Source: Patescibacteria group bacterium
Lineage (GTDB): Bacteria > Patescibacteriota > Patescibacteriia > 2-01-FULL-39-33
Direction of reading: 5' to 3'
Assembly: GCA_041649655.1 (NCBI GenBank)
Contig: JBAZMO010000001.1
Coordinates: 173-64,172 of the forward strand
DNA length: 64,000 nucleotides
The translations under genes and the position numbers were made by a program. The notes beneath the pieces were generated by a model. The model was not told the origin of the DNA and searched no databases. It saw only the letters and a program-made list of their open reading frames with translations. This document shows, in pieces, positions 36,381 to 57,160 of this stretch (position 1 is the first letter of the stretch; each line of letters starts with the position of its first letter).

Positions 36381-36974
36381 ATGAATAATTCGATGAATAG
36401 CGACGGCTTGCCGATCGGCAAACCTAAATGGCGGGCAATTTCGGAGTTTTTTTGGGAAATGGTCCGAGTCGCCATTATTTCCTTGGTGATAATCCTGCCG
36501 GTCAGGTATTTTTTAATCCAGCCGTTTTATGTCAAAGGCGCTTCGATGGAGCCGAATTTTTATGATCATGAATATCTGATCATCGATGAAATCAGCTATC
36601 GTTTCAACCAGCCGGCGCGCGGCGACATCGTGGTTTTCAAGTATCCTAAAGATCCCAAGCAGTATTTCATCAAGCGCGTCATCGGCTTGCCCGGGGAAAA
36701 AATCAAGATTCAGGATAATAATATTTACGTTAACGGCGCTAAGCTCAATGAAACTTATCTGCCAGAGGCGGTCGAGACGATTCTGCCGCTGCGAGGCTAC
36801 GGCGATGTCGCTTTGGCTGCTGATGAATATTTTTTGTTGGGCGATAATCGCAATCAAAGTTTGGATTCACGGATTTTCGGGCCGGTCAAGCGCGATTTGA
36901 TCGTCGGCCGCACCTGGATCCGCGGTTGGCCGTTCGGCCGGATTACTGTGTTCAATACGCCGGAGTATAAGTAA
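36381..36974 (+). CDS. lepB: signal peptidase I
   Basis: Catalytic GASMEP (Ser) and KRVIGLPGE (Lys) boxes; GDNRNQSLDSR box. Confidence 0.9.
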   Translation: MNNSMNSDGLPIGKPKWRAISEFFWEMVRVAIISLVIILPVRYFLIQPFYVKGASMEPNFYDHEYLIIDEISYRFNQPARGDIVVFKYPKDPKQYFIKRVIGLPGEKIKIQDNNIYVNGAKLNETYLPEAVETILPLRGYGDVALAADEYFLLGDNRNQSLDSRIFGPVKRDLIVGRTWIRGWPFGRITVFNTPEYK

Positions 36975-39503: not shown

Positions 39504-42500
39504 ATGATTAAGAGACAAATCGTTTCTAATCAAAGGTCGTTTTTCAAAAACGCTAGAGCCGCTACTATCGGTTCCTTAGCGTTTTTTATTGCTTTATTTT
39601 TAATGCCGGCTTTGGCTTGGGCGGCCGGCGATATTCCGACATTATCCGGAGTAGTCGAGGGGACTGGTTTGCCCATGGTTAATCTGACGGTCTTTTTGCT
39701 GGCGATCTTGCGGATCTTTTTCGGCTTATTGGGAGTGCTCGCGATCGCGCTTTTGATGTATGGCGGCTTCATTTGGATGACCGCGGCCGGCGAGCCGGAT
39801 AAAGTCACCAAAGCCAAACAAATCATCTATAATACGATTATCGGCTTGATCGTGATCTTTTCCGCTTTTGCCATTACCTCTTTTTTAATGGCTTGGCTGA
39901 ACGGCTTGGGTGGCGGCGGCGATGGCGGCGGCACGACTCGGATTCCCGGCGGCAATGGCGATTGGGGCCGTTCGGCGATTGGGGCCGGACCGATTCAAAG
40001 CGTTTATCCGGCTCCTAATGCGGTCAATGTCCCGATCAATACCAGGATTGCTGTCACTTTTAAAGTTAATATCGATCCTTCCAGTATCTGCGAATTAGTC
40101 GCTGGCGAAACTTATTGCAATGGCGGATTGATGAAGAATGTCACGATTTGCGCGATTAGTTCAACCAGTTCCGATTGCCTGCCGGATCCGGAATTCAACG
40201 CTAATGTTTATGCCGATACCAAGGTCTACCAAGCGACTTCCAGCGATCAAAGGACTTTCATTTTTTCAACCAATAATTATTTAGGCCTTGATGACAATCA
40301 AGTCAGGATTTTCAAGGTTCATTTGGGCGCCGACATAGAAGCGGCTGCTACCAATGAATCGGTTTTTGCTAATCTTCGTTATCCTGATTATGCCTGGGCT
40401 TTCAAGACCAACGGCGTTCTTGATTTCTCGCCGCCTGAGGTGGCTCGAATGGAAATTTATCCCAATCCGGATAATACTCCCGACACTTACAATGTCGGCG
40501 CGCAGTCGACTGTTGGCTCGGCTTCAATTACCGCCTCAATCACCCCTCGACTGGAAACCCCACCGACGATCCAAGGCCGTCCGTTTACTGGTACGCCGTT
40601 GGTTGATATATCTCTAACTGAGGATCTTGATAATGATCCAATTATTCCAGATGATTATTTGAAATTAGGCACCTCTGGTTTTAGTGTTACTAGCACTAAT
40701 TCTGTAAAAAAAATATCATTTCAGATTAGTCCGGCTGGCGAATATATTGAATTTGATATTTCACCGGATGCGGCCAGTATCTTAGGCGTTACTTTTTCTA
40801 GAACAGGAGTTTGCGCCAATAAGGAACGTTGCTTGTTAGTAGATGATAATAAGCGTGTGACGTTGACCGGCTCCGGATTAACAATCGCTTCAACTGGCAA
40901 TTTTTCCGAGGCGCGCGGTTCAAAGTGGTCATTTACCGTCTCTCCCGCTGTTAATGGCGATGAAGTGATTTTGGCTAACGGTACTAATAAGATTAATTTT
41001 ATTTTTGCGGATACATCTTTGCCTGCTAAAATTACTAAGCGTTCAGTGGCGAGCGATGGCCGGACGATAGTCAACACTGATTATTTCACTGTTAAGTCGG
41101 CTGCGACTTCGACGGCCGGCTATCTGAAGGGCCTTAATGACGCCCTGATTGCTCACGCTGGCAATTTTGTAACATCAACTGTTGCTACTAATAAAATAAT
41201 CGTCACGCCGAAAGCGGCTGGCGCTAATTCTTTAAGCTTAACGACTAATAGCTCGGCGCTGGCTATCGACGGCAATTTATCAGGAGAAGCCAGGGTTACC
41301 GCTCGAACGCCTTTGCCGCCCGGTTCAAAGGGCGATGCCTACAATAATTCGGTTTTCCGGGTGTCTTTTACCGAGGCAATCAGCCCGATCAATATTGAAC
41401 AGCATGTCATAATCAAGATTAACGGAGATATTGTCACGGCTTCCACCACTTTGACTAATCAATACCGCACGCTGGAATTTTTGGGCACTAAGCCGTGCGG
41501 CGTTAACAGTTGCGGCAAACAGATGTATTGCTGGCTGGATCCCAACAGCGCCGATGTTTCTTTGCCGGCGAGTATAGAAATCGTGGCGGCCGGCTTGAAG
41601 ACCTGTGTCGGGACGAATGATGATTGGTGCGTTAAATTCGGCGGCACTTGCCAAGTCGGAGTTGATGGTGGCCGTTGCCAATTAACCAATGGCTTGCATT
41701 ATCCTCAGGCCGATGTTTCAGCTGATGGCGTTACCGACATGGCTAATAATTCTTTCAACGGCAATTTTAATAAATCAGAGAATAATAAAGGCGTCATGGT
41801 CGGCAATGCTGAAGGCCGATCGGGAACCGGCGCTGGCAGATCTGGCCAGCCGGCTTATAACGCCAATAGCATTACAACACCAATACACTTCGACGGCTTA
41901 GTCACTTCTTTTGCCAACGACGGCGATGCCAATGGTGATAACTTTTCTTGGTCATTCTTCGTTTCCACTCAGATTGATCGGGCCGCTCCGTTGATTGCCA
42001 AAATCTTACCAACCGGCGACAGTTCCCATGGTATCGGCCTTGATCAGACCTTCCGCGATCCGGTCACTTTAGTTTTTAATGGCTTGATGCGTCTGGCGAC
42101 TCTTCAGCCGGGCTGGGGTTATGGCGAGCGCGAGGCCGACCCCCGTTGGCATACCAGGTATTTGATTTTGAAAACGATTACGGCCGGAGCCAATCCGATC
42201 GGCTATTGGGTTAGCGCGCTCAACTTGGATGAGGGTGATTTTTCGACCGAGGCCGGCCGAGGCGATGGCCTGGCTGATTATACTGAAGCCCGCATCAATC
42301 ACAGCGCTTACGATCAGGCGGTTAATTACGGTCCGCTCGCCGGTAATGGTATTGAGTCAATCACTCAGAATTGCCTTTTGCCCGGTAATGGTCCGATAGA
42401 TGCCGGTGCTACCGGCGATAATAAGTGCGTTTATAATTCTGATGGTTCTGGCAATACTTCCGGTTGTGTCACTGATCTGGATATTGACTCGAATAGACGC

Positions 42501-42710
42501 GTTACCTCGACTAATCCGTCTTCTTATGGCTATTTGCTTTGCAAAGATATTGACGGAGCGGTTTTGTGCGCCAGTGACAAAAAATGCAAGGCCCATGTTG
42601 CTACTTCCACAAATTCTGTTTTGAATGGCAGTTGGATTATTACCAAGGATAAATCCATCACTGATTTTACTACCGGAGAAACCGGCTGCTGCTTTGGCAA
42701 GTGTTTTTAA
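39504..42710 (+). CDS. giant secreted/surface protein 1 (1068 aa) with conserved N-terminal helical-hairpin membrane module
   Basis: Signal peptide then two TM helices around the invariant MYGGFIWMTAAGEPDKVTKAK. Gly-rich linker. Long Ser/Thr/Asn/Gly-rich beta-type extracellular region. C-terminal Cys cluster CCFGKCF. Confidence 0.7.
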   Translation: MIKRQIVSNQRSFFKNARAATIGSLAFFIALFLMPALAWAAGDIPTLSGVVEGTGLPMVNLTVFLLAILRIFFGLLGVLAIALLMYGGFIWMTAAGEPDKVTKAKQIIYNTIIGLIVIFSAFAITSFLMAWLNGLGGGGDGGGTTRIPGGNGDWGRSAIGAGPIQSVYPAPNAVNVPINTRIAVTFKVNIDPSSICELVAGETYCNGGLMKNVTICAISSTSSDCLPDPEFNANVYADTKVYQATSSDQRTFIFSTNNYLGLDDNQVRIFKVHLGADIEAAATNESVFANLRYPDYAWAFKTNGVLDFSPPEVARMEIYPNPDNTPDTYNVGAQSTVGSASITASITPRLETPPTIQGRPFTGTPLVDISLTEDLDNDPIIPDDYLKLGTSGFSVTSTNSVKKISFQISPAGEYIEFDISPDAASILGVTFSRTGVCANKERCLLVDDNKRVTLTGSGLTIASTGNFSEARGSKWSFTVSPAVNGDEVILANGTNKINFIFADTSLPAKITKRSVASDGRTIVNTDYFTVKSAATSTAGYLKGLNDALIAHAGNFVTSTVATNKIIVTPKAAGANSLSLTTNSSALAIDGNLSGEARVTARTPLPPGSKGDAYNNSVFRVSFTEAISPINIEQHVIIKINGDIVTASTTLTNQYRTLEFLGTKPCGVNSCGKQMYCWLDPNSADVSLPASIEIVAAGLKTCVGTNDDWCVKFGGTCQVGVDGGRCQLTNGLHYPQADVSADGVTDMANNSFNGNFNKSENNKGVMVGNAEGRSGTGAGRSGQPAYNANSITTPIHFDGLVTSFANDGDANGDNFSWSFFVSTQIDRAAPLIAKILPTGDSSHGIGLDQTFRDPVTLVFNGLMRLATLQPGWGYGEREADPRWHTRYLILKTITAGANPIGYWVSALNLDEGDFSTEAGRGDGLADYTEARINHSAYDQAVNYGPLAGNGIESITQNCLLPGNGPIDAGATGDNKCVYNSDGSGNTSGCVTDLDIDSNRRVTSTNPSSYGYLLCKDIDGAVLCASDKKCKAHVATSTNSVLNGSWIITKDKSITDFTTGETGCCFGKCF

Positions 42711-42744
42711 GTTATACAATACAAAAAGAAATTTTAATTCTTCA

Positions 42745-45700
42745 ATGTTAGTTCGAACAAAAAAAACACTTTTAGTCATTCTTGTAATTCTGGCGGCAGC
42801 GACTTTAGCGTTGCCGGCGGCGGTTTTGGCTGCGGGCGAAGTCCCGTCGATCGGCTTATTCGGCAGTATTTTCGGCACAGCGACTTTGGCGCAGATCATT
42901 ATTCGGATCATTCAGCTGTTTATGGCGCTTCTCGGCGTCATTGTTGTGGTATTTTTGATGTATGGCGGCTTTATTTGGATGACGGCCTCAGGCGATCCGG
43001 ACAAAGTCACCAAGGCCAAGCGTATCATCTTGCAGGCGATTATCGGCTTGGTTATAATTTTTTCGGCTTTTGCCATCTCCGCTTTCATTTTTGATCGTTT
43101 CGGCCCGCCGGACGGCGGTTCTCCGACTGAGCCCTGCGAAACTGTCGGAGAAACCGACAATTGTTCGGTCGGCGGCTGCACCGGTTTGCGGACTTGTCTG
43201 GAAGGCAATATCTGGGGTCCATGCCAATTCGATCCTAATTGCGATCCGATCAATCCTCCTTATAACCTAATTCCGCCGGTCATCACTTATATTGACCCGG
43301 CTTGGGACGTTAATGGCGATACTGATCCGAGCAATATCACGGAGGCCTCTACGGCTGATGACATTTCCAATGGTGCTCCGGGCAATGCCATCAGTATTTT
43401 CGGCCGTTATTTCGGCCAAGTCAGGGGCAAGGTTTATTTTGTCAGAAATAGTGACAATATTAGAACCGAGGCCGACATTGCCGATTGTTTCGGCGCTTGG
43501 ACTAGCAATCAGATCATTGTCGTGGTGCCGGACGGTTTGGATCAAATGGATATCAGCTCGGAAACGGCCATCGTCAATGCCAGTCCGCTCAGGAATTACA
43601 ATGTAATTGTCGAGAAAAATTCGACCGGGGCGACGTCTTTGGTCTCCAATGACTGGGGGTTTCAAGTCAATAAAATCGAACGGCCGGGGATTTGTTCTAT
43701 GGTTCCCAAGAGTGGCGCCTATCCGGCGACGACGACGATTGTCGGTTGGAGATTTCCCAGCGCTTCGCCGCAGAATGTTTTGTGGTCGCTGTCGCCTTAT
43801 CATGCAACATCAAGCGCTAGTGCTTGGACCGTCAGTTCGACGATCGATACCGTGCCGCAGGATTTAAGCGGCCGCGCTCTGGTAAATATTTTTAATGGCG
43901 TTGTCAAGAGTAATTCATATTTGTTCATGGTTTCTCGAGGCCGATTGGATGATCCTTGCGGCTATGATAATCGTTCATGCGACGAGGATATTAATACTTG
44001 CGGCCAAGATGAGGGCGTAGTTTTGGCCTGCCAATTCTGTTCTGATGATCCGGCTAATGATGATCATTATCAAGCCGGCTGTGATTTGTCGAAGAATTGC
44101 ACTTGCCAAATCAACTCGAAAGACGCCTGCGTTTATAATTCTGATCAGTTGCAAAATGATAAGCAGGCCTGCTTTATTGGCGGTTGCGCCGGCTTTAAAT
44201 ATTGCACTGATAGAGGTGTTTGGAGTAGCACTTGTGTGCCATCAGCAGTCGATTGCGTGCCATATCTGGGCAATCGTTCCGGCATCGCCTCATTTTCTTG
44301 GGCTTTTAACGCTTTGAAACGGCCGATAGCCGGCATGAGCTGTAAGTCGGATATTTGGAGCGATGATACTTGCGATCTTAACGGCTGTTTTGACGCCAAT
44401 CTCGGCTGTGATACTTCTCAAACGACTGAAGAGTGGGTTGAGATTTATAATCCGACCGATAGTGCGATTGATATCAGTGATTTAAGAATCAGCTATATTG
44501 ATGATTATTTCGGCACTGAAGAAAAAACCTTTTTTTCTTTTTCTAATCCGACTGGCAAATTTATCGGCGGCAAGAGTTACATGGCCCTAAGGAACACCGG
44601 AGCCCGTTTGCCGAATATTTCTGGAAAAATAATTTTAAATAATAATTTCAGCCAAGTTGATATTGTTGAGTATGGCAATAATGATTTATCGGCGGCTTTT
44701 TCGCCCGCTTCTTTTGGTCGGAAAATAGACGGTTTGGATACCGGCAACGCGTCTGATTTTGTTTATTTTCCTAATTCGAGCGGCGATTTTCCTAACAATA
44801 CGGCCAGTTCGACGATCGGTGATCATTTGGTTATAAATGAGGTTTCTTTGGCTCATGATGCCTGTACTTGCGTGCCGAAGTCGCAATTATGCGCCCCTGG
44901 CGAAGTTGATGCCCAGACCTGCGATCCGGTCGGGCAGTGCCGGCAGGCGAGGACCTGTTCGGCCGACGGCCATTGGGGCGCTTGCGTTCAAAGCGATCCC
45001 AATTGCATTCCTTATCCGCTTGTGCCGGCCTCGACTATCGCTTCTTACAGCTGGTCGTTCGGCGCGAATGCCGGGCTCTCTGGCGCCGGTCCGATGGTGG
45101 TTAAGTCGTGCGACGGTTCGGTCGATTGCAGCCGAAACAGTTTGCCCAGCCCTTCGCCCTGGGAAGAGTGGACGCCGGAAAATTCCAATGTGGAAAATCA
45201 AGCCAGTATCGATGCCTGTTTGAATGCCACGATTTTTGCGCGTTTTACACAAACGATGGATCAAGCGACTTTGAATACGGAGAATATTAAATTGTATAAA
45301 TATAATAATAGTAACGCAACTTGGGAAGATAATCGCTTAATTGATGATATTGAATCATTACCATTAAGTGACAGTGGTGTAGATTCTTTCAATTTAAAGC
45401 TTAATCAGAATTTAATTTCAAGTACCACTTATCGTGTTTATTTAAGCAAGTCGATTCGTGATGGATTGGGGCGCAATTTGATTGATACTCCTAATGGTCC
45501 GCGGCAGGAATTATGCGGCGGTGTCGGCGATGGCAATGGCGTCTGCTGGAGTTTTAAAACTCGCGCAGCCAGCGATCCTAATAAGATGTGCGAAGTCGGC
45601 TGCGTCAATTGCGGTCCGGACAAGTACTTCAATCGTTATTACGGCCAAAAGAAACAGCACGCCGCTTATCCGATCAGCATTGATAATTCTTGCATTGTGC

Positions 45701-48700
45701 TGGATGCTACGAATTATGAATGGGACTGGACGGTCGAGCAGCAAACCACTGGTAACAGTAATAATCGCGGTTGGGAAATCATGCGGACTATGGCGAGCGC
45801 CTATTCATGGCTGTTGGATCCAATCAGCCAGTTGGCTCTGACGGCAACTGATGGCATTTTACATCAGATAAGCGGCACAGTCATATCTGGCAAAGCGACG
45901 ACGACGGCGCAGTTGGAAACACGCTGGCGCACTAATTCCAATTATTCCGCTTGGTTCGAAGGCGATGATTTTGATTTTTTTGCAGTTAGGTCTAAGGAGG
46001 CCGCGACTCAAAATTCGGGAATCTGCCGGGCGCATAACAATTTTACCGATCCAGTGGTGATTGAAAGCCAATACTGCACCAAGAGTGATACTGAGGGTGA
46101 TGCTGACAGCGATAATTGGTCCAAGCAGGTCTTGCAAAGCCCGAGTCCCTGGAAGGGGCAAACTGATGCCTGCACTAATGGCGTTATCTTCGTGCTGTTT
46201 TCCCGTAATATGATGAATGGAAGTTTATTGAACGGCGGCCTAATTAAAAATTTTGAAATTTATAAGTGCGACAATGCCGCAGCCGCTACTTCTTCTGATT
46301 TCAGCAGTTATAATGATGATTGCGAACTTCAGCCGGCTTGGCAGGCTAAAGTTTTCAATTATACTCATCAAAATATCACCTTGCAGGAGTTAATGGCCGC
46401 TGCTGACAGCGTCCAAGGATCTACAACTCCGGAGGGAATCCGGATTTATCCTCCGAATAAATTAGCGTCCAACACTTGGTATAAAGTCCTTATTAGGGGC
46501 GGCGAGAACGGGGTGCGCGGAGGAAATTCTGATTCCAATGAGCAATCCGAGGGTGTTTTGCAAGTCCCCAATCCCAATGCCAGGATAATCAACGGTGCGG
46601 AAACTTGGTATTATTGGTATTTCAAGACAGGCGCCGGCGATTGCCCGATCGATCAGGTGGCGGTCTTGCCGCAAATCAAGTTTATGCCGGTAGTCGGAGA
46701 GTCCCAGGATTATTTAGCCGACCCGTATGCTGCCAATTGCAACCATCTTAATTCTAATAATTATGTTTGGCAGTGGGATTCTTTGATCAATCCCTTTGTC
46801 GACCGTTGTCCGAACGGCAATAATTCGGGCGATTATGTCGCTTCTATTCTTTCGACCACTTCAGACGAAACGATAGCGACTTCCAGAAGCGAGGGTAATA
46901 CTAAGATCACGGCCGCCGCCGAGCAGGGCGAGTGCGAAGCTAATAAATGGGGCGCCGGCGAATTGCAGGTCGGTTATGGCGGATTCAAGGTGTCTTCTTA
47001 TGACAACACCAATTGCTTGAACACTGATATTAATATCAATTTTTCTCAAGAGGCCAAAAGCGATACTCTTAAGAATAATATTGAGCTTTACCGATGCGGT
47101 AATTCTGATTGCCGTTTTGATGATTTACAGAACTTGCAGATTACTATAAGAAATCCGCAAGGCCTTTATGAAGATCCTATCAAACCAGATCCTTTTTATT
47201 CCAATTCGGTTTATCTGGTGCCGAATATCAATCTGACTCCGGGCGCAACTTATCGAGTGGTGGTTAAGGGAGGTGATACCGGCGTTAAGTCATTTGCTAA
47301 CTCCTCATTATTGGATTTGAATTATAATTCTGAGGCCAAAGCCGGTGGTGAAGTTTGCGATCCGGGGCTTTATCCTTGGCGGTCGGGCGATCCGTTTGTC
47401 GGATTATGCAGTAATGCCTGCAAGCTCATCGGCAACTTATGCGGCACGCCACTGGCGGAATGCCAGCCGGCTGATTTATTGTGCGATGACAACTGCCACA
47501 AAGTCGGCAATAGCAATACTTCGGCCAGTTGCGGTAATAATAAGATCGATCCCGGCGAGCAATGCGACGACGGCAATACCAGAGATGGCGATAGTTGCAG
47601 CTCGTTATGCTTGCTCGAAGGCAGCAACACCAGATACGGCTCGCTATGTGGCAACGGCAAGATAGAAAAAGGCGAGCAATGCGACGACGGCAATATCGTA
47701 GATAATGATGGCTGCAGTTCCGAATGTTTGCTGGGGGTAGAGGGCGTCACTACTAACATTTTATTTAATACCAGTTTTGAAGAAGACGACATACGTACTG
47801 GTGCGTTGAAAAATTGGTCTACATATTCACAAAAGCATTCTAAAGTGGAAGTTACATCAGTTGAGTATCAATCAGGAGCTCGAAGCGTTTTAATATTGCA
47901 GGAATCTAATCAAGTATTTCCCGGTACTTGTACGGAGGCGATTTGTAATGACTTGAGTCCAGCCCTCCCAACTAATATCGGTTGCACTTGGTTGAGTGCT
48001 ACCAATCAGTGTAGTTTTAATCAGCAGGATAGTGCGCATCTTGGCAACTCCAATCCCATTTATAATTTTGGCAACACTCTATATGCACCAAATAACCATG
48101 CGGTGGTGTGGGGTGCTCTTTCTTATAATGTATCTTCGCCCGGCTTTGTGGTAGGTCAGAAGTATACTGTTAAATTTTGGTACAAGGGAATAGTTGATAA
48201 GAATAGCACTACTAGTTTGGTTTTTGGTTATAACCCTGGCAATCTTAGTCAATGCAACTCGACTAGCACATTAAATTTGAAAGATGACCCAAGTAATCCT
48301 GGCAATGAAATTTGTAAAACTGGTAAATTTTGTTCTGACGATCCTAGTCATTGCTGTTTTCAGGCGCCTTACCAAACTAAATGTTATAGCGGCATATCTA
48401 AAACAGCGATTAATCCCGGTACTTATGATGATTGGCAGCCACATACGACCGAATTTATTTACACTTCGGAATTAGCCAGCTTGCGAGATAGTGCCGGCAG
48501 ATTATTAAATGTGATAGCCCTAGTTATTCCTAATGCGCCAACAACTGATAGTGGTACCAGGCTTTATATTGATGATTTTTCGGTCGAGCAAGTCGGTTCT
48601 GTCTCTGACGCGCCGATTTGCGGCAATGGCAAGATTGAAGCCGGTGAGCAATGCGATGATGGCGCTGATAATGCGGTTGATAGTTCGTCTCTTAATCGTT

Positions 48701-51700
48701 GCACCTCCAATTGTCTTTTAAGCGGCGCGAATGCTACGAGCACAGGCGGCACTTGCGGTGACCGCAAATTACAGAATGGCCAATTTGACAGTTACTCTTG
48801 GACTTTCAATCTTGATGACAATGTCAGAGTTTGCCAAGCTGTCAGAGCCGATCTCAATCCTTGCCCTAATGGTGTTTGGTCGGTCAGCGCTGATGCCAGT
48901 GTCAGCAGTTTTGATATCTTGTTTTATCGTGGGTTTGAAGGCAATAATAAACCTGCGTCTAATTGCATTTCTGACGCAGAGATGCGGCAATACGGCTTTT
49001 GGCGGCGGATGTTTAATGAATTAGCCAAGATAGTTAAAAGTTTCTTCGGTTTCCATTCGGCTTTGGCGGCCGATTGGTGGTGTACGATGAATAATTCTAA
49101 TGACAGTAAATTTTCAGCTGAAGATTTGCAAAAAATGAGCTTGGGTAATTTCAAGCGTGATATTTTGCTGGACGGGGTGTCGACTGAGATCATCGGTTAT
49201 ACTGATGATAATGACGGTTATAAAGTTAATTTTATCCGTAAAAATAACTATCAGCCGAACACCCAGTATAAGGCGGTGGTGAATTATGTCCGCAATGGCG
49301 TCAGCAATATCCGGACTTCCGATGTGACGACTTACTCCTCAAGCTGCCGAATGGACAGCGTTAAATTCGATGTCTGGCCGCGCGGCGCGGCTAAGAATTC
49401 GGATGCGTTTTTCTGCGCTTCTGATCCGGTTGCCGGCAAGTTGGACGAGTGCGGCCGTTTCAGCGATGATCCTTATGACGACGATATGTCGGCGGCTTGG
49501 ACCATGAATCAACTGGATAACGGCTATAACTTGAACAGCAATGGCGATGCTCAAACCGCTATTAATAATCCCAATTACAAGCCGGGCAATAATCATCTTT
49601 ATCGCGTCTGGCCGCTTGATCAAGACGGGCATGTTTTGCGCGGCATTAATTTTGAGCAGAATGTGGCCAATGTCGGCGCTCTGGTCAATCAGTCGGCTTT
49701 AGGCAGCACTGGTTATGCCGGCGATTTCTGGCTGACTTCGGGGCCAACCCAGGGCCGATCTCTTTTTAACGTCAAGATCAGTGATTTGAATGATGCCGGC
49801 GCCGGCAGCGTCAGCGGCAGTTTGCCGATTTATACTTTTTTCTGCAAGAATCCCTGGCCGTCCCCCAATGATTTCCCGTTTGTTGATAGTAACGCAAATT
49901 GTCCAACTGGCACTTGTATTAATACTAATTTCGCCGCTTACTATTGCCGCGATGCCGGACTGGACAGCACGACGGCTGATGATTTGCCGTCGATCGGCAG
50001 GATAAATTCCGGGGTGGCGGTCATCGGCTCTGAAGCTTGCCCAACCACTGATCCGTGCGACAATAAGATTAAGGAGTTCTTATTCAGCGGTTCGGCTGCC
50101 GGCATAGCGACCTCCAGCAATACCATCGGCTTGAGGATTTACAACAATAATAATCATTATTCGCCGACTTTGTGGTATCAATCGCGATTCAATCCCGCTT
50201 CCCAAAGCAATTTGTCGAAATTAAGCGTCGACGGCTATAGCGCCAGCCGAGAAGGCCGGACGACTTATATTAATGCGGCTGATTTTAAAGATGGCCAGGA
50301 CAAGGTTTATTCCGACATATTTATTTTGTCTTATGACCAGAACGCCGGCGAAGCGGTTAAGAATATTTATGACCAACTCTTAGCCAACTGGTTTTTCAAT
50401 GCCGGCTCCTTGTCAGTCGGCGGCTTGGAATATTATGAAGCCCTTGGTTTTTGCAGTGAAGGCAGCCAGGCCGATCAAGATAACAGATGCTTCAGCGATG
50501 TCGATTGCTTGAAACGCGGCGCCGGTTATTGTAAGTCGGAAAAAGCCAAGATCACCCGCGATACTCAGCGCTTGGCTGATGTCCAGGATATTTACAAGGA
50601 GTTGGCTGGTTATTATGGCCGCTTACGCTGTTCTAATGATTTCAATCGTGTTTGCCGGTCCAATGCCGACTGTTACGGCGGCGGAGCTTGCGGTAATTTC
50701 TATCCTAATTTGCGCGCCGGCACTTACCTGACCGGCAAAACCTTCAGTGTTTGGCCGAGCTGGCAGGATAACCTGGGCAAGGACTTGGGAACCGCTTTGC
50801 CAGTTGATCCGATTAATAAATTGTGGGCTTGGTATGGTAAGTCAGTTGATTGCTCTAATCCTTATAATCCCGTCACTTGTTGGGACCAGACCGGCAAAAA
50901 AATGGAGTCGAATCTTGATTGGAATTCTGCCGTCTATGCTTATTACGGCACTAAAGCCGGCACTTCGACTAAGATTTATATCAAGGGTGAAAAGGACTCG
51001 ACCGGTTCGATTTGGCATGAAGATTGGGTTTCGTTGGCGACTTGGGGTTATAACCCTTTCAGTGGTTATGTAGTTGGTGGTTTTCATTCAATAGTCAGCG
51101 ACAGTTGCGGCAATAATGTTTGTGATAATTCTGCCGGTGAGACCTGCTCTAGTTGTCCTTTGGATTGTGCTTGCTTAATTGGCAAATCTTGCCAAAAAAT
51201 TTCTAGTGTTTGGCAATGCGCGACATCGACATTACCGATTGCTGCATCCGCGACCTGCGGCAATGGGATTATAAATCATAGTATTAATTATATGACTGGA
51301 GCGAATATCGGAGAAGAGTGTGATTTTATTAATGGCGTGCCGAATTGTCCTAGTCCAAATGAGCTATTTGGGAATCCTAATATTATAAAACTTGTAACAT
51401 CTACTGTTCAAGGCGCTCTTTGCTGCACTGACCAATGCAAATTATCTGATTGGTATAAATCAGTTAATTCAAATCCCAGATGTGGCGACGGCTTAAGGAC
51501 TGACCAGGAAGAATGTGATTGTGGAACGGTTGGTTATACGCCAGCAAAATATAATCCCTTTGTCTGTAATAATCTAAATTATAATCCGATAACTACATAT
51601 TTAGAACCGCCAGCTAGGCCGGTTGATAAGCCATATTGCGACACTAATTGTTTTCTTCACATTAATACTGATTACAGGTTTTGCGGTGATGGTTTAAAGA

Positions 51701-52491
51701 CAGACGAGGAAAAATGCGATCAAGGTGATCGAAATGGCGTATCCGGCGGTGATTGTAGTAATCTTTGCGAATTTACTTGTACTATTAATAACTATAATAG
51801 TGCGGCGTTGACTTTTGGGTCGGCAAAATCAATAACTCAAATCTGGGAAAATTCCGGCGGTTCAGTGACGTTGAATACGCCCATTTGCCGCTTATCAGAC
51901 AAGATAAAATTGACAGTTGAAGCAGCTGCTGTTTCTGCCGCTTCGCCGGTTTTATCAGCTTTTGCCACTGGCGCAGACGGCCAGGAATATAGTTGCAATC
52001 GAGCTAGCGCAGCTGATTATTTTCAGAATAATGGCAGTTTAAGCCCCGGTTATAATGTTAATGATTCGAATGATTGTTACGTCAAGGTGATTGATAATAA
52101 TAAAAAATGTGATGATATCAGCTGGTTTCAAAGTAATCAGGGGTGTTGTCTTTTTAATAGAGATGATAAGATGTGGCATAAACCTTTTTGGACGCCTTTT
52201 ACTGGCATTAATGCTACTGGTGATTTGTGCGATCAAAATAATACTCTATTATTGGCGTTTCCGGTCCCTATTTTAAATCCAGGCGCGGTTATTCCTAAAA
52301 TTACAATTAAAATCGACGATCAACCGACTAATATCATTGACCAGGAAATTAATGGCAGTCAAACTCTTGATGTTACTATCTCTGCCGGTTTCTGCGATGA
52401 CGTTAATCATAACATCAGTTTGTCTTACAGCGATGCTGCTTCCGTTAAGCTTTCCTCGGTCTCGCTTGGATACTGCCCTAAATTAGATTAA
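42745..52491 (+). CDS. giant secreted/surface protein 2 (about 3250 aa)
   Basis: The same N-terminal module (MYGGFIWMTASGDPDKVTKAK). EEWVEIYNPTDSAIDISDLRISY lamin-tail-domain motif. At least five CGNGKIE.GEQCDDGN..D.DGCS..CL repeats (Myxococcus-type Cys-rich repeat). Many paired-Cys modules. Start set at ATG 42745 (MLVRTKK...). Confidence 0.75.
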   Translation: MLVRTKKTLLVILVILAAATLALPAAVLAAGEVPSIGLFGSIFGTATLAQIIIRIIQLFMALLGVIVVVFLMYGGFIWMTASGDPDKVTKAKRIILQAIIGLVIIFSAFAISAFIFDRFGPPDGGSPTEPCETVGETDNCSVGGCTGLRTCLEGNIWGPCQFDPNCDPINPPYNLIPPVITYIDPAWDVNGDTDPSNITEASTADDISNGAPGNAISIFGRYFGQVRGKVYFVRNSDNIRTEADIADCFGAWTSNQIIVVVPDGLDQMDISSETAIVNASPLRNYNVIVEKNSTGATSLVSNDWGFQVNKIERPGICSMVPKSGAYPATTTIVGWRFPSASPQNVLWSLSPYHATSSASAWTVSSTIDTVPQDLSGRALVNIFNGVVKSNSYLFMVSRGRLDDPCGYDNRSCDEDINTCGQDEGVVLACQFCSDDPANDDHYQAGCDLSKNCTCQINSKDACVYNSDQLQNDKQACFIGGCAGFKYCTDRGVWSSTCVPSAVDCVPYLGNRSGIASFSWAFNALKRPIAGMSCKSDIWSDDTCDLNGCFDANLGCDTSQTTEEWVEIYNPTDSAIDISDLRISYIDDYFGTEEKTFFSFSNPTGKFIGGKSYMALRNTGARLPNISGKIILNNNFSQVDIVEYGNNDLSAAFSPASFGRKIDGLDTGNASDFVYFPNSSGDFPNNTASSTIGDHLVINEVSLAHDACTCVPKSQLCAPGEVDAQTCDPVGQCRQARTCSADGHWGACVQSDPNCIPYPLVPASTIASYSWSFGANAGLSGAGPMVVKSCDGSVDCSRNSLPSPSPWEEWTPENSNVENQASIDACLNATIFARFTQTMDQATLNTENIKLYKYNNSNATWEDNRLIDDIESLPLSDSGVDSFNLKLNQNLISSTTYRVYLSKSIRDGLGRNLIDTPNGPRQELCGGVGDGNGVCWSFKTRAASDPNKMCEVGCVNCGPDKYFNRYYGQKKQHAAYPISIDNSCIVLDATNYEWDWTVEQQTTGNSNNRGWEIMRTMASAYSWLLDPISQLALTATDGILHQISGTVISGKATTTAQLETRWRTNSNYSAWFEGDDFDFFAVRSKEAATQNSGICRAHNNFTDPVVIESQYCTKSDTEGDADSDNWSKQVLQSPSPWKGQTDACTNGVIFVLFSRNMMNGSLLNGGLIKNFEIYKCDNAAAATSSDFSSYNDDCELQPAWQAKVFNYTHQNITLQELMAAADSVQGSTTPEGIRIYPPNKLASNTWYKVLIRGGENGVRGGNSDSNEQSEGVLQVPNPNARIINGAETWYYWYFKTGAGDCPIDQVAVLPQIKFMPVVGESQDYLADPYAANCNHLNSNNYVWQWDSLINPFVDRCPNGNNSGDYVASILSTTSDETIATSRSEGNTKITAAAEQGECEANKWGAGELQVGYGGFKVSSYDNTNCLNTDININFSQEAKSDTLKNNIELYRCGNSDCRFDDLQNLQITIRNPQGLYEDPIKPDPFYSNSVYLVPNINLTPGATYRVVVKGGDTGVKSFANSSLLDLNYNSEAKAGGEVCDPGLYPWRSGDPFVGLCSNACKLIGNLCGTPLAECQPADLLCDDNCHKVGNSNTSASCGNNKIDPGEQCDDGNTRDGDSCSSLCLLEGSNTRYGSLCGNGKIEKGEQCDDGNIVDNDGCSSECLLGVEGVTTNILFNTSFEEDDIRTGALKNWSTYSQKHSKVEVTSVEYQSGARSVLILQESNQVFPGTCTEAICNDLSPALPTNIGCTWLSATNQCSFNQQDSAHLGNSNPIYNFGNTLYAPNNHAVVWGALSYNVSSPGFVVGQKYTVKFWYKGIVDKNSTTSLVFGYNPGNLSQCNSTSTLNLKDDPSNPGNEICKTGKFCSDDPSHCCFQAPYQTKCYSGISKTAINPGTYDDWQPHTTEFIYTSELASLRDSAGRLLNVIALVIPNAPTTDSGTRLYIDDFSVEQVGSVSDAPICGNGKIEAGEQCDDGADNAVDSSSLNRCTSNCLLSGANATSTGGTCGDRKLQNGQFDSYSWTFNLDDNVRVCQAVRADLNPCPNGVWSVSADASVSSFDILFYRGFEGNNKPASNCISDAEMRQYGFWRRMFNELAKIVKSFFGFHSALAADWWCTMNNSNDSKFSAEDLQKMSLGNFKRDILLDGVSTEIIGYTDDNDGYKVNFIRKNNYQPNTQYKAVVNYVRNGVSNIRTSDVTTYSSSCRMDSVKFDVWPRGAAKNSDAFFCASDPVAGKLDECGRFSDDPYDDDMSAAWTMNQLDNGYNLNSNGDAQTAINNPNYKPGNNHLYRVWPLDQDGHVLRGINFEQNVANVGALVNQSALGSTGYAGDFWLTSGPTQGRSLFNVKISDLNDAGAGSVSGSLPIYTFFCKNPWPSPNDFPFVDSNANCPTGTCINTNFAAYYCRDAGLDSTTADDLPSIGRINSGVAVIGSEACPTTDPCDNKIKEFLFSGSAAGIATSSNTIGLRIYNNNNHYSPTLWYQSRFNPASQSNLSKLSVDGYSASREGRTTYINAADFKDGQDKVYSDIFILSYDQNAGEAVKNIYDQLLANWFFNAGSLSVGGLEYYEALGFCSEGSQADQDNRCFSDVDCLKRGAGYCKSEKAKITRDTQRLADVQDIYKELAGYYGRLRCSNDFNRVCRSNADCYGGGACGNFYPNLRAGTYLTGKTFSVWPSWQDNLGKDLGTALPVDPINKLWAWYGKSVDCSNPYNPVTCWDQTGKKMESNLDWNSAVYAYYGTKAGTSTKIYIKGEKDSTGSIWHEDWVSLATWGYNPFSGYVVGGFHSIVSDSCGNNVCDNSAGETCSSCPLDCACLIGKSCQKISSVWQCATSTLPIAASATCGNGIINHSINYMTGANIGEECDFINGVPNCPSPNELFGNPNIIKLVTSTVQGALCCTDQCKLSDWYKSVNSNPRCGDGLRTDQEECDCGTVGYTPAKYNPFVCNNLNYNPITTYLEPPARPVDKPYCDTNCFLHINTDYRFCGDGLKTDEEKCDQGDRNGVSGGDCSNLCEFTCTINNYNSAALTFGSAKSITQIWENSGGSVTLNTPICRLSDKIKLTVEAAAVSAASPVLSAFATGADGQEYSCNRASAADYFQNNGSLSPGYNVNDSNDCYVKVIDNNKKCDDISWFQSNQGCCLFNRDDKMWHKPFWTPFTGINATGDLCDQNNTLLLAFPVPILNPGAVIPKITIKIDDQPTNIIDQEINGSQTLDVTISAGFCDDVNHNISLSYSDAASVKLSSVSLGYCPKLD

Positions 52492-52514: not shown

Positions 52515-53291
52515 ATGTTCGAACAAAACTCCAACACGCCGCAGCCGCCGTCGAATTTGCCTTTCGGCCAGCCGCAAAACCCTTTTATGCCACCGCCGCC
52601 GGCTAATATTCCGCCGATTGCTAATAATTTGCCGCCGCCGGCTTTTCAGCCGCCAGTCAATCAATTTGCGCCGGTGCCAAATTCTGCTCCTCAGACCGAA
52701 GATATGTTTGCCGCGACTGATCGTCCGGCATCGCCGGCAAGCGGCTATGCGGCTCAGCCGGCTGCTTTTCCGGCTTATCAGCCGGGGCCGCGTATTTCTG
52801 ATACTGATCTGTTCGGCGGCGGCGGAACCCCTTGGGGCAAGATTATTACTATCATTATTATTGTTCTAGTGGCGATCGGCGGCATCGGAGCGGCGATTTG
52901 GGGTTATAATTATTGGATTAGCGGCCTTAAACCGACTGCTCCGGCCGCCGAGACCCCGGTTGCTCCGGCTGCGGCCGCGCCGGCAATTACTGCTCCGGCC
53001 GCCGAGACCCCGGCGGTTATAGCTACTACCACGGTTGTTGCCGAAACAGTCGTTGATTCTGACGGCGATGGCTTGACTGATAGCGAAGAGACAGCGCTAG
53101 GCACTGATCCGCAGAAAGCGGATACGGACAGCGACGGCTTGACCGATTGGGCGGAGATTAAGATTTATAAGAGCGATCCCTTGAATCCCGATACTGATGG
53201 CGATACTTATAAGGATGGCGCGGAAGTGATCAATGGTTATGATCCGTTGAAGCCGGGCAGCGCGCGGCTCTATGAAGTGCCGCAGCCATAA
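52515..53291 (+). CDS. Pro-rich membrane protein with thrombospondin-type-3-like Ca-binding repeats
   Basis: Pro-rich N-terminus, TM, then DSDGDGLTDSEE...DTDSDGLTDWAE...DTDGDTYKDGAEVINGYDPLKPG. Confidence 0.6.
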   Translation: MFEQNSNTPQPPSNLPFGQPQNPFMPPPPANIPPIANNLPPPAFQPPVNQFAPVPNSAPQTEDMFAATDRPASPASGYAAQPAAFPAYQPGPRISDTDLFGGGGTPWGKIITIIIIVLVAIGGIGAAIWGYNYWISGLKPTAPAAETPVAPAAAAPAITAPAAETPAVIATTTVVAETVVDSDGDGLTDSEETALGTDPQKADTDSDGLTDWAEIKIYKSDPLNPDTDGDTYKDGAEVINGYDPLKPGSARLYEVPQP

Positions 53292-53315: not shown

Positions 53316-54503
53316 ATGTTTTTCAAACCGAAAAAGGCGATTCCGGCCCCTGAGCCGGCCGCCGCTGAAGCGCCGCAGGGGTTTTCTGATGTTTATGTGA
53401 TGCCGGAAAAATATGTGATGCCCGGAGCGAAAACTGGCGGCAAGGGCTTACTGATTGTTTCCATTATTTTGATCGCAGTCATTTTGCTGACGGCCAGTTA
53501 TTTGATTTATGATATGATGAACAGCCAGCCGGCTGCGGTAACACCGGCTCCGATTCCGCCCCAAATCGAGGTGATGGAAGTTGAACAGCCGCTGATTGAG
53601 GCGACCAGTACAATTGAAGCTGTTGCTACGACGACTGGAACAGAAATCACCAGCCAGCCAACTAGTACCCCGGCCTTGACGCCGGCCGCACTTTCGGTCA
53701 GTTTGGATTCCGACGGCGACGGCCTGTCGGATATAGAAGAGACCTTGCTGGGGACTCTGCCGACGAACATTGATACTGATGGAGACGGTTATCGCGATGG
53801 CAGCGAGGTGGCCGGCGGCTATAATCCCACCAAGCCGGGCGATTCTCGGTTGAAGGAGTCGCCATTTATCAAATCATTGGCTACTAATTTCAGCTCGGAT
53901 AATTTTAAGACCCTTTACCCTAAGGATTGGTTGGCGGCCTTCGTTGCCGCCAATCGGCAGGCCTTGATCACGGCGGCGACCGGCGAAATCATCAGAATCA
54001 GTATTCGGGATAATCAGCTTGGCCAATCGGCGCTGGGCTGGTATCTGCAGGATCATCCCGAGGCGATTGTCAGCCAATTGCGAGTGGCGGAAGCCGGCGT
54101 TCTGTCAGGTATTTATACTGCCAACGGCTTGACGGCTTATTTGACTGATCCGGCCAAAACCAAGTTTTATGTTTTTGAATATTTAGCCGGCCAGCAGCTG
54201 GAAGTCCGTTATGGCACGGTTTTTGCGGCGATTATTAAAAGTTTTGAATTGACGGCGCCGGCCGCGGCTTTGGCGCCGAATGCCTCATCCTCAGCCGATC
54301 AGGTTTGCCAAGGATATTTGTGTTATGAGGAACCCTGCGGGCCGTTGGTCAGCGGAGAAAATTCTTGCCTGAGCGCCACGCTAAAAAAAACTTGCCATGA
54401 GCGGGCTTGCGAAATTGATAGCGATTGTCCGACCGGACAGATTTGCGTTGAGATCAGTTGTTGGAATGGTGATTTGGGGGAAATCGCCAAGGTTTGCAAA
54501 TAG
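53316..54503 (+). CDS. paralogous TM plus TSP3-like repeat protein with Cys-rich C-terminal domain
   Basis: DSDGDGLSDIEE...DTDGDGYRDGSEVAGGYNPTKPG; C-terminal CQGYLCYEEPC...CHERACEIDSDCPTGQICVEISC. Confidence 0.6.
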   Translation: MFFKPKKAIPAPEPAAAEAPQGFSDVYVMPEKYVMPGAKTGGKGLLIVSIILIAVILLTASYLIYDMMNSQPAAVTPAPIPPQIEVMEVEQPLIEATSTIEAVATTTGTEITSQPTSTPALTPAALSVSLDSDGDGLSDIEETLLGTLPTNIDTDGDGYRDGSEVAGGYNPTKPGDSRLKESPFIKSLATNFSSDNFKTLYPKDWLAAFVAANRQALITAATGEIIRISIRDNQLGQSALGWYLQDHPEAIVSQLRVAEAGVLSGIYTANGLTAYLTDPAKTKFYVFEYLAGQQLEVRYGTVFAAIIKSFELTAPAAALAPNASSSADQVCQGYLCYEEPCGPLVSGENSCLSATLKKTCHERACEIDSDCPTGQICVEISCWNGDLGEIAKVCK

Positions 54504-56344: not shown

Positions 56345-57160
56345 ATGCCCAGAAAACAGCCAGCCAATATAATGAGTCCTTTGGAGCCGCCGATCGCTCG
56401 GCCGAAACTGAAGAAATCTCCGCGCCGCGCTTCGGATATCTCGGCTCCGGCTGTCGGTTCGACCTCGGTCCAGTTGCCGGCCAAAGCCGGCCGCCGTTCT
56501 CGCAGTTCATCTTCTTCGGCGGCGGCTATCACACTGTTCGTCTTGTTGATTCTGGCTGTCGGCGCTTATTTTACAACCGAGTATTTGAAGAATAAAACTG
56601 AGCGGGAAATTTCAGCGGCGAATGAAGCCGCGGCGATAGCCGGCGGCCAAGCGGCCGGCCAAGCTGATTTGATCGGCCAAGCGGCTCCGGTTGATCCGAC
56701 CGCTGATTGGAAGGCATTCAATTTGTCGGCTATTTCGACATCCAGTCCGGCTTCAACTTCTTTATCTTTCAAATACCCGGCTGAATTGCAACTGACTCAG
56801 AATTCTAATAATTTGATTTTGAGCAATCCTGAAACCACCAGCACCCAGCTTAACATTAATTGGGTCAAAAGCGCTAAGACCTTAACTGAATATCTGGCCG
56901 CTTTGGACAAACTCAATGAAACCGGCTGGGAAGGCCAACCCTCAGTTGAAGTGGCGACTTCGACGGCGGCAGCGGTCATTTCCGGTTATCCGGTGATTTT
57001 CCGCCAGCAAAAACTGTTGGCTGCCGATTTGGATCAGTTCATCGTTTATGTCAAGACCTCCGACACCCTTTATGCCATCAGCTTGACTGCGTCCGGGCTT
57101 AATCAGGATTTATTGAATTTTTTTGTCACCTTTTTGAACAATTTCAAGTTCGCGCAATGA
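56345..57160 (+). CDS. hypothetical single-pass membrane protein inserted between ftsA and ftsZ
   Basis: Basic cytoplasmic N-terminus, Ser-rich, one TM, extracytoplasmic domain. Confidence 0.5.
   Translation: MPRKQPANIMSPLEPPIARPKLKKSPRRASDISAPAVGSTSVQLPAKAGRRSRSSSSSAAAITLFVLLILAVGAYFTTEYLKNKTEREISAANEAAAIAGGQAAGQADLIGQAAPVDPTADWKAFNLSAISTSSPASTSLSFKYPAELQLTQNSNNLILSNPETTSTQLNINWVKSAKTLTEYLAALDKLNETGWEGQPSVEVATSTAAAVISGYPVIFRQQKLLAADLDQFIVYVKTSDTLYAISLTASGLNQDLLNFFVTFLNNFKFAQ

Follow-up and report, generated by a model that had tools for sequence, protein, structure and literature searches.

What does a Patescibacterium build from a single gene of nearly ten kilobases, and what might the product do? 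The question is raised by a long open reading frame (ORF) on the forward strand of a 64,000-nt stretch of DNA from a Patescibacteria group bacterium (positions 173 to 64,172 of contig JBAZMO010000001.1, assembly GCA_041649655.1; hereafter the window). An initial annotation, made from the letters and a list of ORFs, had described it as a single intact gene of about 9.7 kb for a giant exported protein from the Candidate Phyla Radiation (CPR). To our knowledge, how the ultrasmall CPR/Patescibacteria recognise and hold their hosts is largely unknown beyond a few cultured Saccharibacteria, and we know of no cultured member of the class ABY1 (Buchananbacteria, Magasanikbacteria, Uhrbacteria). Starting from this one ORF, our analysis defines a family of at least 1,700 representative clusters that has its own signature module and a locus of four to five genes in fixed order, and it maps the conserved scaffold against exchangeable cassettes and a variable tip. 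We consider it fairly probable that the encoded protein, hereafter the giant, is a modular, membrane-anchored cell-surface fibre for host or surface contact in a Ca. Buchananbacteria-type Patescibacterium.

The gene and its pilin-type head

The giant gene starts with an ATG at 42745 and its ORF ends at 52491 (+), giving 3,248 codons plus a stop. The stop-free frame spans 42625..52491, and the translation from 42745 contains no internal stop. The upstream gene stops at 42710; the ATG at 42745 follows 34 nt later as the first ATG after that stop and looks like the biologically sensible start. In DNA of 47 % GC, a stop-free frame of such length cannot plausibly have arisen by chance, and the antisense and overlapping ORFs (80-184 aa) within the gene were set aside as by-products of the long one. 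Over 100 % of its length, the giant is identical to WC517_00195 (P0001), a 3,248-aa protein of a metagenome-assembled genome (MAG) at NCBI, named 'hypothetical protein [Patescibacteria group bacterium]' and encoded on a 64.6-kb contig. The single intact gene of the initial annotation is thereby upheld. The 90 % cluster of the giant has this one member, and the nearest relative is 54-56 % identical.

The protein is rich in Ser (9.6 %), Asn (8.7 %), Gly (8.3 %), Asp (7.7 %) and Cys (4.4 %, 142 residues), which bears out the high Cys/Asn/Gly/Ser content noted before. The GC content of the gene (0.45-0.49) is the same as that of its flanks, so that horizontal acquisition is not supported. Inside the gene there are no tandem DNA repeats or simple-sequence tracts able to drive phase variation; the only arrays lie in the downstream gene with a Pro/Ala-rich linker.

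Two features make up the N-terminal head:

42745..42831 (+), aa 1-29: Sec-type signal peptide, with a K-rich n-region, a hydrophobic core and an A-x-A site, read from the sequence
42877..43086 (+), aa 45-114: VirB2/TrbC-type pilin hairpin (PF18895, T4SS_pilin), from profile and hydropathy

Cleavage of the signal peptide is predicted between ...AVLA and AGE. The VirB2-like head that the initial annotation had recognised is well supported: PF18895 scores 41.9 bits on the whole protein and 44.6 bits on the N-terminal segment, covering profile positions 2-70 of 71, above a gathering cut-off of 26.6 bits. Hydropathy and sequence show one hydrophobic helix at about aa 45-83 and another at about aa 91-120, with the basic loop GDPDKVTKAKR between them and no further hydrophobic span in the giant after the head. 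If the loop lies inside, as in the VirB2 arrangement, all residues past 120 would be outside the cell. The N-terminal 115 residues of the giant share their plan with the VirB2/TrbC-like pilins of Patescibacteria (PF18895/PF04956), namely a signal peptide and then a pair of hydrophobic helices with a short basic loop. An N-terminal sequence search of the PDB returned only noise (designed helical proteins, E 0.19-0.52).

The head is 52 % identical (E 8e-32) to that of the 1,068-aa protein encoded directly upstream, and 40-58 % identical to free-standing PF18895 pilins of 111-152 aa. It ranks among the best-conserved parts of the giant: close orthologues are 59-62 % identical to it, P0009 and P0013 38-48 %. 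The two nearest small pilins stand in tandem arrays of 4 and 8 PF18895 genes encoding 120-390 aa (L028 6779-9205; L029 5460-10876), both preceded by a gene for an SBP_bac_1 solute-binding protein. These are the 'VirB2 arrays' described for Patescibacteria, and no VirB4 was found within 10 kb of them. The small pilins, the 214-390-aa array proteins and companions of 700-1,100 aa together indicate that the PF18895 hairpin carries ectodomains of many sizes. Like the members of such arrays, the giant forms a tandem pair with another pilin-headed gene.

Ectodomain, conserved module and family

Beyond the head, the ectodomain resolves into a stalk, inserted cassettes, Cys-rich spacers, a conserved module and a tip. 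Fractions below refer to the 45 homologues described at the end of this section.

43162..43242 (+), aa 140-166: paired-Cys spacer module 1 (regex match, sequence)
43276..43944 (+), aa 178-400: conserved Ig-like region, probably IPT/TIG, with BLAST coverage in 27-34 of 45 homologues
44170-44256 (+), aa 476-504: paired-Cys spacer module 2 (regex match, sequence)
44401..44859 (+), aa 553-705: lamin-tail domain (LTD), apparently a circularly permuted cassette; sub-threshold PF00932
44920-45006 (+), aa 726-754: paired-Cys spacer module 3 (regex match, sequence)
45022..47424 (+), aa 760-1560: conserved stalk of Big_5-type Ig-like domains (PF13205), kept in about 17-25 of 45 homologues
47530..47736 (+), aa 1596-1664: two Myxococcus-type Cys-rich acidic repeats (TIGR02232/DUF4215; 45.8 and 49.7 bits)
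47755..48594 (+), aa 1671-1950: inserted jelly-roll-like cassette, weakly similar to the carbohydrate-binding module CBM_4_9 (PF02018, 22.7 bits, sub-threshold against a cut-off of 25.9)
48619..48717 (+), aa 1959-1991: third Cys-rich repeat (TIGR02232, 22.7 bits)
48742..49761 (+), aa 2000-2339: conserved unannotated region, covered in about 16 of 45 homologues, no Pfam match
49762..51057 (+), aa 2340-2771: family-defining conserved module (alignment A1), unannotated in Pfam and NCBIfam
50062..50454 (+), about aa 2440-2570: putative Mog1/PsbP-like alpha/beta domain inside the module, with inferred boundaries
50539..50979 (+), about aa 2599-2745: putative type-IV-pilin/pseudopilin-like head without the hydrophobic N-terminal helix, inside the module
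51478..51780 (+), aa 2912-3012: two degenerate Cys-rich repeats (TIGR02232, 15.7 and 20.1 bits, under the cut-off)
51781..52488 (+), aa 3013-3248: lineage-specific C-terminal tip, no homologue by BLAST or phmmer

The three paired-Cys modules, which locate those proposed by the initial annotation, follow the pattern C..GGC.G...C...G.W..C....C and may serve as Cys-knot-like spacers. For the Ig-like region at aa 178-400, PF01833 (TIG) is present in distant homologues, and the whole-protein PDB sequence search gave an IPT/TIG match at E 0.27 only, which is non-significant noise. The stalk is better defined: the best PF13205 copy, at aa 822-914 (45208-45486), scores 43.7 bits against a cut-off of 23.6, and two further copies are weak.

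The LTD had been placed at about 44.42 kb. A segment with profile support is indeed there, its EEWVEIYNPT stretch starting at nt 44428; nevertheless, PF00932 reaches only 23.9-29.0 bits in the giant (E 5.7e-5 to 1.5e-6), under the gathering score of 34.3. The orthologous segments of P0003 and P0009 pass that score with 44.1 and 51.8 bits. In all three proteins the LVINEVS strand, which opens a canonical LTD, sits C-terminal of the EEWVEIYNP strand. When we moved this strand to the front in silico with a short linker, the score rose from 29.0 to 36.9 bits and the profile coverage widened from 19-105 to 7-105. The orthologue scores and this gain make the sub-threshold match in the giant credible, and the domain is apparently a circularly permuted LTD. 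In an alignment of 13 full-length proteins the cassette occurs in some orthologues only and is absent from P0002 and P0013.

Myxococcus-type repeats of the pattern CGNG..E.GE.CDDGN...DGCS..C, of which at least five had been proposed, do lie at nt 47530, 47647, 48619, 51478 and 51679. Scored singly, however, only three pass the NCBIfam cut-off of TIGR02232 (myxo_disulf_rpt, 20.8 bits), and the last two are degenerate or borderline. Of the two profiles that the initial annotation had named for checking its assignments, TIGR02232 scores 75.1 bits on the giant as a whole, whereas PF00932 clears its threshold in the orthologues only. DUF4215 (PF13948) gives 32-35 bits in segment scans. Between the second and third repeats, the jelly-roll-like cassette is covered by about 6 of the 45 homologues; in the 13-protein alignment it is present in P0002 only and is deleted in P0003, P0004, P0009 and P0013.

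The last third of the giant (aa 2000-3248) has zero Pfam or NCBIfam matches. Its first part, aa 2000-2339, is 40-72 % identical to the close orthologues P0002, P0003 and P0004 and includes the amphipathic stretch FWRRMFNELAKIVKSFFGF at aa 2085-2103. The part that follows, aa 2340-2771, was missed by the initial annotation, as were the companion genes on both sides. We aligned aa 2340-2800 of the giant (first row) with 14 homologous segments (alignment A1) and found 21 invariant columns, with invariant C, W, Y and P positions. Against 1.84 billion representative proteins, the A1 profile gave 1,705 matches at E<=1e-3 and 1,333 at E<=1e-30. The hosts of the module are almost all 2,000-4,500 aa long and carry it about two-thirds along the protein. 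Named members include A0A0G1MLC6 of Ca. Uhrbacteria, a 'VWFA domain-containing protein', and fragments labelled 'pilin, partial'. The most conserved 100 residues of the giant, aa 2601-2700, lie within the module and are 73-79 % identical to close orthologues, and about 35 of the 45 relatives cover aa 2350-2750. The module is missing from the upstream 1,068-aa protein. By sequence, the module has no match in Pfam, NCBIfam or the PDB; a hit of its profile to MotY among PDB sequences (E 0.15) was treated as chance.

Two putative domains lie within the module. The first would belong to the Mog1/PsbP-like fold group, which we take to comprise LpqN, MTC28, Apa, DcrB and PsbP. For the second, the comparison systems are type IV pilins and pseudopilins of type II secretion systems (T2SS; EpsG/PulG, PilA, PilE), together with modular pilins that bear adhesive modules. 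In the alignment, the C-terminal half of the module carries K.K..RD..RL.D..DI...L..Y, then YP.L..GTY, WPSW and LP.DP.N. These motifs are reminiscent of the alpha1-C helix and the 'P.DP' loop known from Gram-positive/CPR type IV pilins and GspG-type pseudopilins. An inserted Cys-rich loop separates the putative helix from the 'YP' motif. A true type IV pilin would have a class III signal peptide and an alpha1-N helix; here the pilin-like region is internal and preceded by a Cys-rich segment, with no hydrophobic helix. When the pilin-like model was compared with the PDB by Foldseek, no match had an E-value below 3.9.

The C-terminus is divergent. Its last 249 residues have no detectable homologue, even by phmmer at E 10, and the last ~250 residues show 6-31 % identity in the full-length alignment. 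Many relatives end in a VWA domain followed by a last strand ...YCP; the giant keeps ...LGYCP, and an unrelated Cys-containing segment replaces the VWA domain. As a side observation, P0002, P0003, P0013-P0016 and possibly P0006 extend past ...YCP with a 'QVAGA(F/Y)E'-type motif and a ~25-residue amphipathic or hydrophobic helix, for example LWQEILSIFWQLLPGNIIKSFVK, which may be a sorting or membrane-interacting tail. This tail is missing from the giant. A similar amphipathic stretch, FWRRMFNELAKIVKSFFGFHSALAADWWC, is internal there (aa 2085-2113, nt 48997-49083) and conserved in close orthologues.

Searching 5.8 billion proteins yielded 45 relatives, which are 1,893-5,328 aa long and nearly all carry PF18895. 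They come from Patescibacteria, and those with a name belong to Ca. Buchananbacteria or Ca. Magasanikbacteria. Outside the head, their domain content differs (VWA, LamG, LTD, Big_5, TIG, fn3, BNR-like). BLAST coverage along the giant is good at aa 1-130, 200-400, 750-1650 and 2350-2750 and poor at 550-700, 1650-1950 and the last 250. In other lineages, LamG or BNR-type repeats are nested in the LTD position, and jelly-rolls or beta-propeller-like repeats are inserted in the conserved module. The family of ABY1-type pilin-headed giants thus appears to combine a conserved scaffold with gain and loss of cassettes and a divergent tip, and the giant gene is best described as the Ca. Buchananbacteria orthologue of this large uncharacterised family.

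The locus is equally regular. In the window and in six related loci (L001-L006), the order is (LytR) - signal peptidase I (SPase I) - HisRS - (small ORF) - YqeY - pilin-headed protein - giant - two to three TSP3_bac proteins - YbeY - (DAGK) - FtsA - (unknown) - FtsZ, with a pilin-headed neighbour of 696-1,106 aa. The same order holds where the relatives are 52 %, 37 % and 36 % identical, and even down to 25-26 % identity over 11-15 % of the query. In GTDB species genomes, a scan built on 13 full-length close relatives, and so confined to the Buchananbacteria-like clade, added 21 loci (27 in total) labelled Buchananbacteria, Parcubacteria or Patescibacteria. By tblastn with the window proteins, the order was identical in L001-L027 wherever the flanks were long enough. 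Eight of these loci (L009, L012, L015-L018, L020, L023) are titled 'uncultured Gammaproteobacteria bacterium' (TPA_asm binchicken), which looks like a placeholder or erroneous taxonomy. With L001, the closest genome, as reference, identity is 81-86 % for HisRS, FtsA, FtsZ and SPase I but only 52-62 % for the giant, the pilin-headed protein upstream of it and both TSP3 proteins. The four-gene surface module is therefore passed on vertically, and it evolves far faster than the housekeeping genes beside it. The domain mix, called unusual by the initial annotation, is not peculiar to this genome but belongs to a large family that is inherited vertically and keeps its synteny.

Function and alternative readings

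Host attachment can reasonably be inferred from this architecture. After export and cleavage of the signal peptide, the hairpin would be retained in the cytoplasmic membrane in a VirB2-like manner, with the basic loop inside and both ends outside. The whole C-terminal ectodomain (~3,100 Cys-rich residues) would project from a wall-poor monoderm cell, stiffened by calcium and by disulfides (142 Cys, with a DsbA-like protein encoded in the window). Its conserved scaffold would confront a partner surface, be it a host cell, a glycan or a mineral, with exchangeable binding domains and a distal tip that varies. The giant would then act as an adhesin or contact fibre, with its pilin-headed and TSP3 neighbours forming the membrane-proximal base. 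The intact ORF of orthologue-typical length, the above-threshold and well-conserved head on a hairpin that bears ectodomains of many sizes, and the domain content (Big_5, TIGR02232/DUF4215, LTD, CBM-like) support this reading. So do the exchange of cassettes on a conserved scaffold, the widespread module, the fixed gene order, the contrast in identity between surface and housekeeping genes, and the DsbA-like gene.

Fibrillar stalk-and-tip adhesins of monoderm bacteria offer a close general comparison. Like them, the giant has an anchor at one end, an Ig-like stalk, distal binding domains, fast-evolving surface parts and domain shuffling. Unlike them, it carries an N-terminal VirB2-type hairpin instead of a C-terminal LPXTG/sortase signal, adds the conserved Mog1/PsbP-like and pilin-like module, and has a stalk predicted to be heavily disulfide-bonded. 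With the Myxococcus Cys-rich acidic repeat proteins (TIGR02232/DUF4215) it shares the three repeats that pass the NCBIfam threshold; the repeats make up less than 5 % of the giant, as spacers, and the remaining architecture is unrelated. Large Cys-rich extracellular proteins with weak Myxococcus-repeat similarity have been described in Peregrinibacteria and proposed for attachment in CPR (Anantharaman et al. 2016, PMC4736985). By description, they resemble the giant in being large, exported and high in Cys, with Myxococcus-repeat similarity and a disulfide-forming protein in the genome, but they average 1,655 aa and 7.2 % Cys, lie in a 14-gene cluster, and have no reported VirB2-type head, module or fixed synteny (PMC4736985). 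The Omnitrophota giants (West-Roberts et al. 2023, 10.1101/2023.11.21.568195) likewise come from ultrasmall host-dependent bacteria, are surface or secreted proteins of very large size and have conserved neighbouring genes; they are far larger, follow a secretion locus resembling T2SS or type IV pili and are linked to cell-wall degradation, with no known homology or common head.

What was already known therefore includes giant Cys-rich CPR surface proteins proposed for attachment (PMC4736985), VirB2-like pilins of Patescibacteria, and each Pfam domain found here. Four things are new within the searched literature and libraries: a conserved, widespread design that fuses a multi-thousand-residue ectodomain to a conjugative-type pilin hairpin; a signature module, so far without annotation, that has putative Mog1/PsbP-like and pilin-like parts; a locus of four to five genes in fixed order; and an LTD that is apparently permuted. 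Openly accessible literature on PF18895/T4SS_pilin, on giant proteins or genes of CPR and on lamin-tail domains of Patescibacteria contained no description of the architecture. The accessible parts of the Patescibacteria pilin literature made no mention of giant fusions on VirB2-like pilins, the lone 'fused' case being VirB3-VirB4. In the visible part of the supplementary table of one survey (PMC12102498), PF18895 matches are listed as 'VirB2' with lengths not shown, and giants have probably been counted among these pilins in surveys. The module now provides an annotation handle for proteins currently named 'hypothetical', 'LamG-like', 'VWA domain-containing', 'MopE-related' or 'pilin, partial', and the map singles out specific fragments for binding and structural work, namely the LTD, the CBM-like cassette, the tip and the pilin-like head.

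Several points weigh against a surface fibre for host contact. The source is an uncultured MAG without a known host, and the reading rests on sequence. In addition, no above-threshold domain of the giant has a demonstrated ligand, its LTD and CBM-like matches being sub-threshold. The strong conservation of the head and its Lys-rich basic loop suggests a role beyond passive anchoring and keeps in play the entry of the head into a pilus of a type IV secretion system (T4SS) as a rare subunit. Finally, a gene present throughout in single copy, at a housekeeping locus by ftsA/ftsZ, fits the usual picture of an envelope-structural gene better than that of an accessory adhesin, and this invariant core-genome position keeps a constitutive envelope role in play.

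The pilus alternative holds that the VirB2-type head co-polymerises with small PF18895 pilins as a rare or terminal subunit, so that the ectodomain decorates or caps a T4SS-type pilus and replaces the missing VirB5/PrgB-type adhesin. Since both termini of VirB2/TraA-type pilins face the pilus exterior, a C-terminal extension is topologically possible. The identity of the head to the free-standing array pilins and the conservation of the head and loop fit this idea. So does the distribution of the machinery: in the accessible part of the survey, VirB2-like pilins occur in 1,948 assemblies as arrays of 2-11 genes, T4SS are well represented in ABY1, and no PrgB-type adhesin was detected (Quinonero-Coronel et al. 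2025, PMC12102498). A T4SS review singles out the Patescibacteria pilins as unique among monoderms (PMC12857230), and a pilin array together with several adhesins is essential for epibiotic growth of the saccharibacterium Ca. Southlakia epibionticum (Wang et al. 2023, PMC10633639). Nevertheless, a T4SS pilus subunit would be expected to be small, as the described Patescibacteria pilins are, and to have VirB4/VirB6 neighbours. The giant has 3,248 aa, its hairpin carries ~3,100 extra residues, and its locus beside ftsA/ftsZ lacks VirB4, VirB6 and the type IV coupling protein (T4CP), both in the window and within 8-10 kb in all 27 related loci. Such an appendage is sterically incompatible with regular helical packing, leaving a minor subunit at most, and the small-pilin arrays examined likewise lack a nearby VirB4. 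We regard the pilus-borne adhesin as unlikely; if the head truly enters a T4SS pilus, the view of how that essential machine contacts hosts would change. A bolder version is very doubtful: the giant and its 1,068-aa neighbour would be the missing adhesin subunits of a T4SS-type pilus, with their VirB2 heads among small PF18895 pilins, while the internal pilin-like domain docks on a type IV pilus or minor-pilin tip, one polypeptide thereby coupling both filament systems. It would be the first conjugative-type pilin with a multi-thousand-residue adhesin and the first protein with two unrelated pilin folds, and the two coupled systems are both essential for epibiotic growth.

Quite unlikely, in our view, is a housekeeping envelope scaffold, in which the four-gene module builds a constitutive surface layer or a pole- or division-associated structure (S-layer-like or cell-shape-determining) and the domain variation reflects phage or predator pressure instead of host specificity. 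Across Buchananbacteria, Magasanikbacteria and other lineages, a single copy occupies an invariant core-genome position, flanked by hisS-yqeY and ybeY-ftsA-ftsZ; the family has very many members, the GC content of the giant gene equals that of its flanks, and the companions carry TSP3 calcium-binding repeats of a type known from envelope proteins. However, S-layer, SLH and other lattice-forming domains are absent, an N-terminal anchor followed by an Ig-like stalk, swapped binding cassettes and a divergent distal tip make up the architecture of a fibrillar adhesin, and adjacency to ftsA/ftsZ in tiny, highly syntenic genomes need not imply shared function. A secreted effector or enzyme, that is, a polymorphic toxin or cell-wall-degrading giant with the pilin head only as an export handle, is highly improbable. 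Cell-wall degradation has been associated with giant proteins in predatory nanobacteria (bioRxiv 10.1101/2023.11.21.568195), and Mog1/PsbP-like folds also occur in immunity proteins of type VI secretion systems; yet Pfam and NCBIfam contain no catalytic, toxin or peptidase family matching the giant at E<=1, no immunity-like gene is adjacent, and the two hydrophobic helices predict membrane retention. We give hardly any weight to a chimeric assembly or decaying gene that mimics one ORF. The contig is metagenome-assembled and the exact sequence is present on one contig only, but the frame is unbroken for 9,744 nt, the giant is collinear throughout with 3,246-4,196-aa orthologues from the same locus, and invariant residues are retained over the full length. 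Judged by sequence, both a pseudogene and an assembly artefact are excluded.

Companion genes and other observations in the window

The genes that accompany the giant, together with one candidate partner further upstream, are as follows:

16210-17118 (+): DsbA/thioredoxin-like protein (PF13462 87 bits, PF01323 58 bits)
36381..36974 (+): SPase I (S26; PF10502 167 bits), heading the syntenic block in all loci
39504..42710 (+): 1,068-aa PF18895-headed protein (41.6 bits)
52515..53291 (+): single-pass membrane protein with a Pro/Ala-rich linker and TSP3_bac calcium-binding repeats (PF18884 64.8 bits), in a conserved position
53316..54503 (+): second single-pass TSP3_bac protein, with a C-terminal globular Cys-containing domain (PF18884 35.9 bits), in a conserved position

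Wherever the flank of a related locus extends far enough, a counterpart of the 1,068-aa protein lies immediately upstream of the giant. SPase I is a candidate processing enzyme for both pilin-headed precursors, and the DsbA-like protein is a candidate oxidase for the 142 Cys of the giant; MdbA-like oxidoreductases are reported to be enriched in CPR (bioRxiv 10.1101/335083). In the first TSP3 gene, short imperfect tandem DNA repeats with periods of 18 and 30 lie at 52593-52643 and 52935-53014. They encode the Pro-rich N-terminus and the Ala/Pro-rich linker, and could allow length variation.

Three further observations concern other genes. The LeuRS gene at 23954-26857 (+) contains a NUDIX domain (PF00293, aa 385-516, 47.3 bits) inserted just past the editing domain; NUDIX is not in the precomputed Pfam list of the partly visible LeuRS of L001. 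Between ftsA and ftsZ, a 271-aa ORF at 56345-57160 (+) has no Pfam match, and the proteins at that spot in the closer Buchananbacteria loci are 26-53 % identical to it. Upstream of the LytR gene, the segment 32182-34385 (+) encodes a TrmB/MarR-type regulator followed by a 468-aa protein with a partial kinase match (PF00069, aa 268-316).

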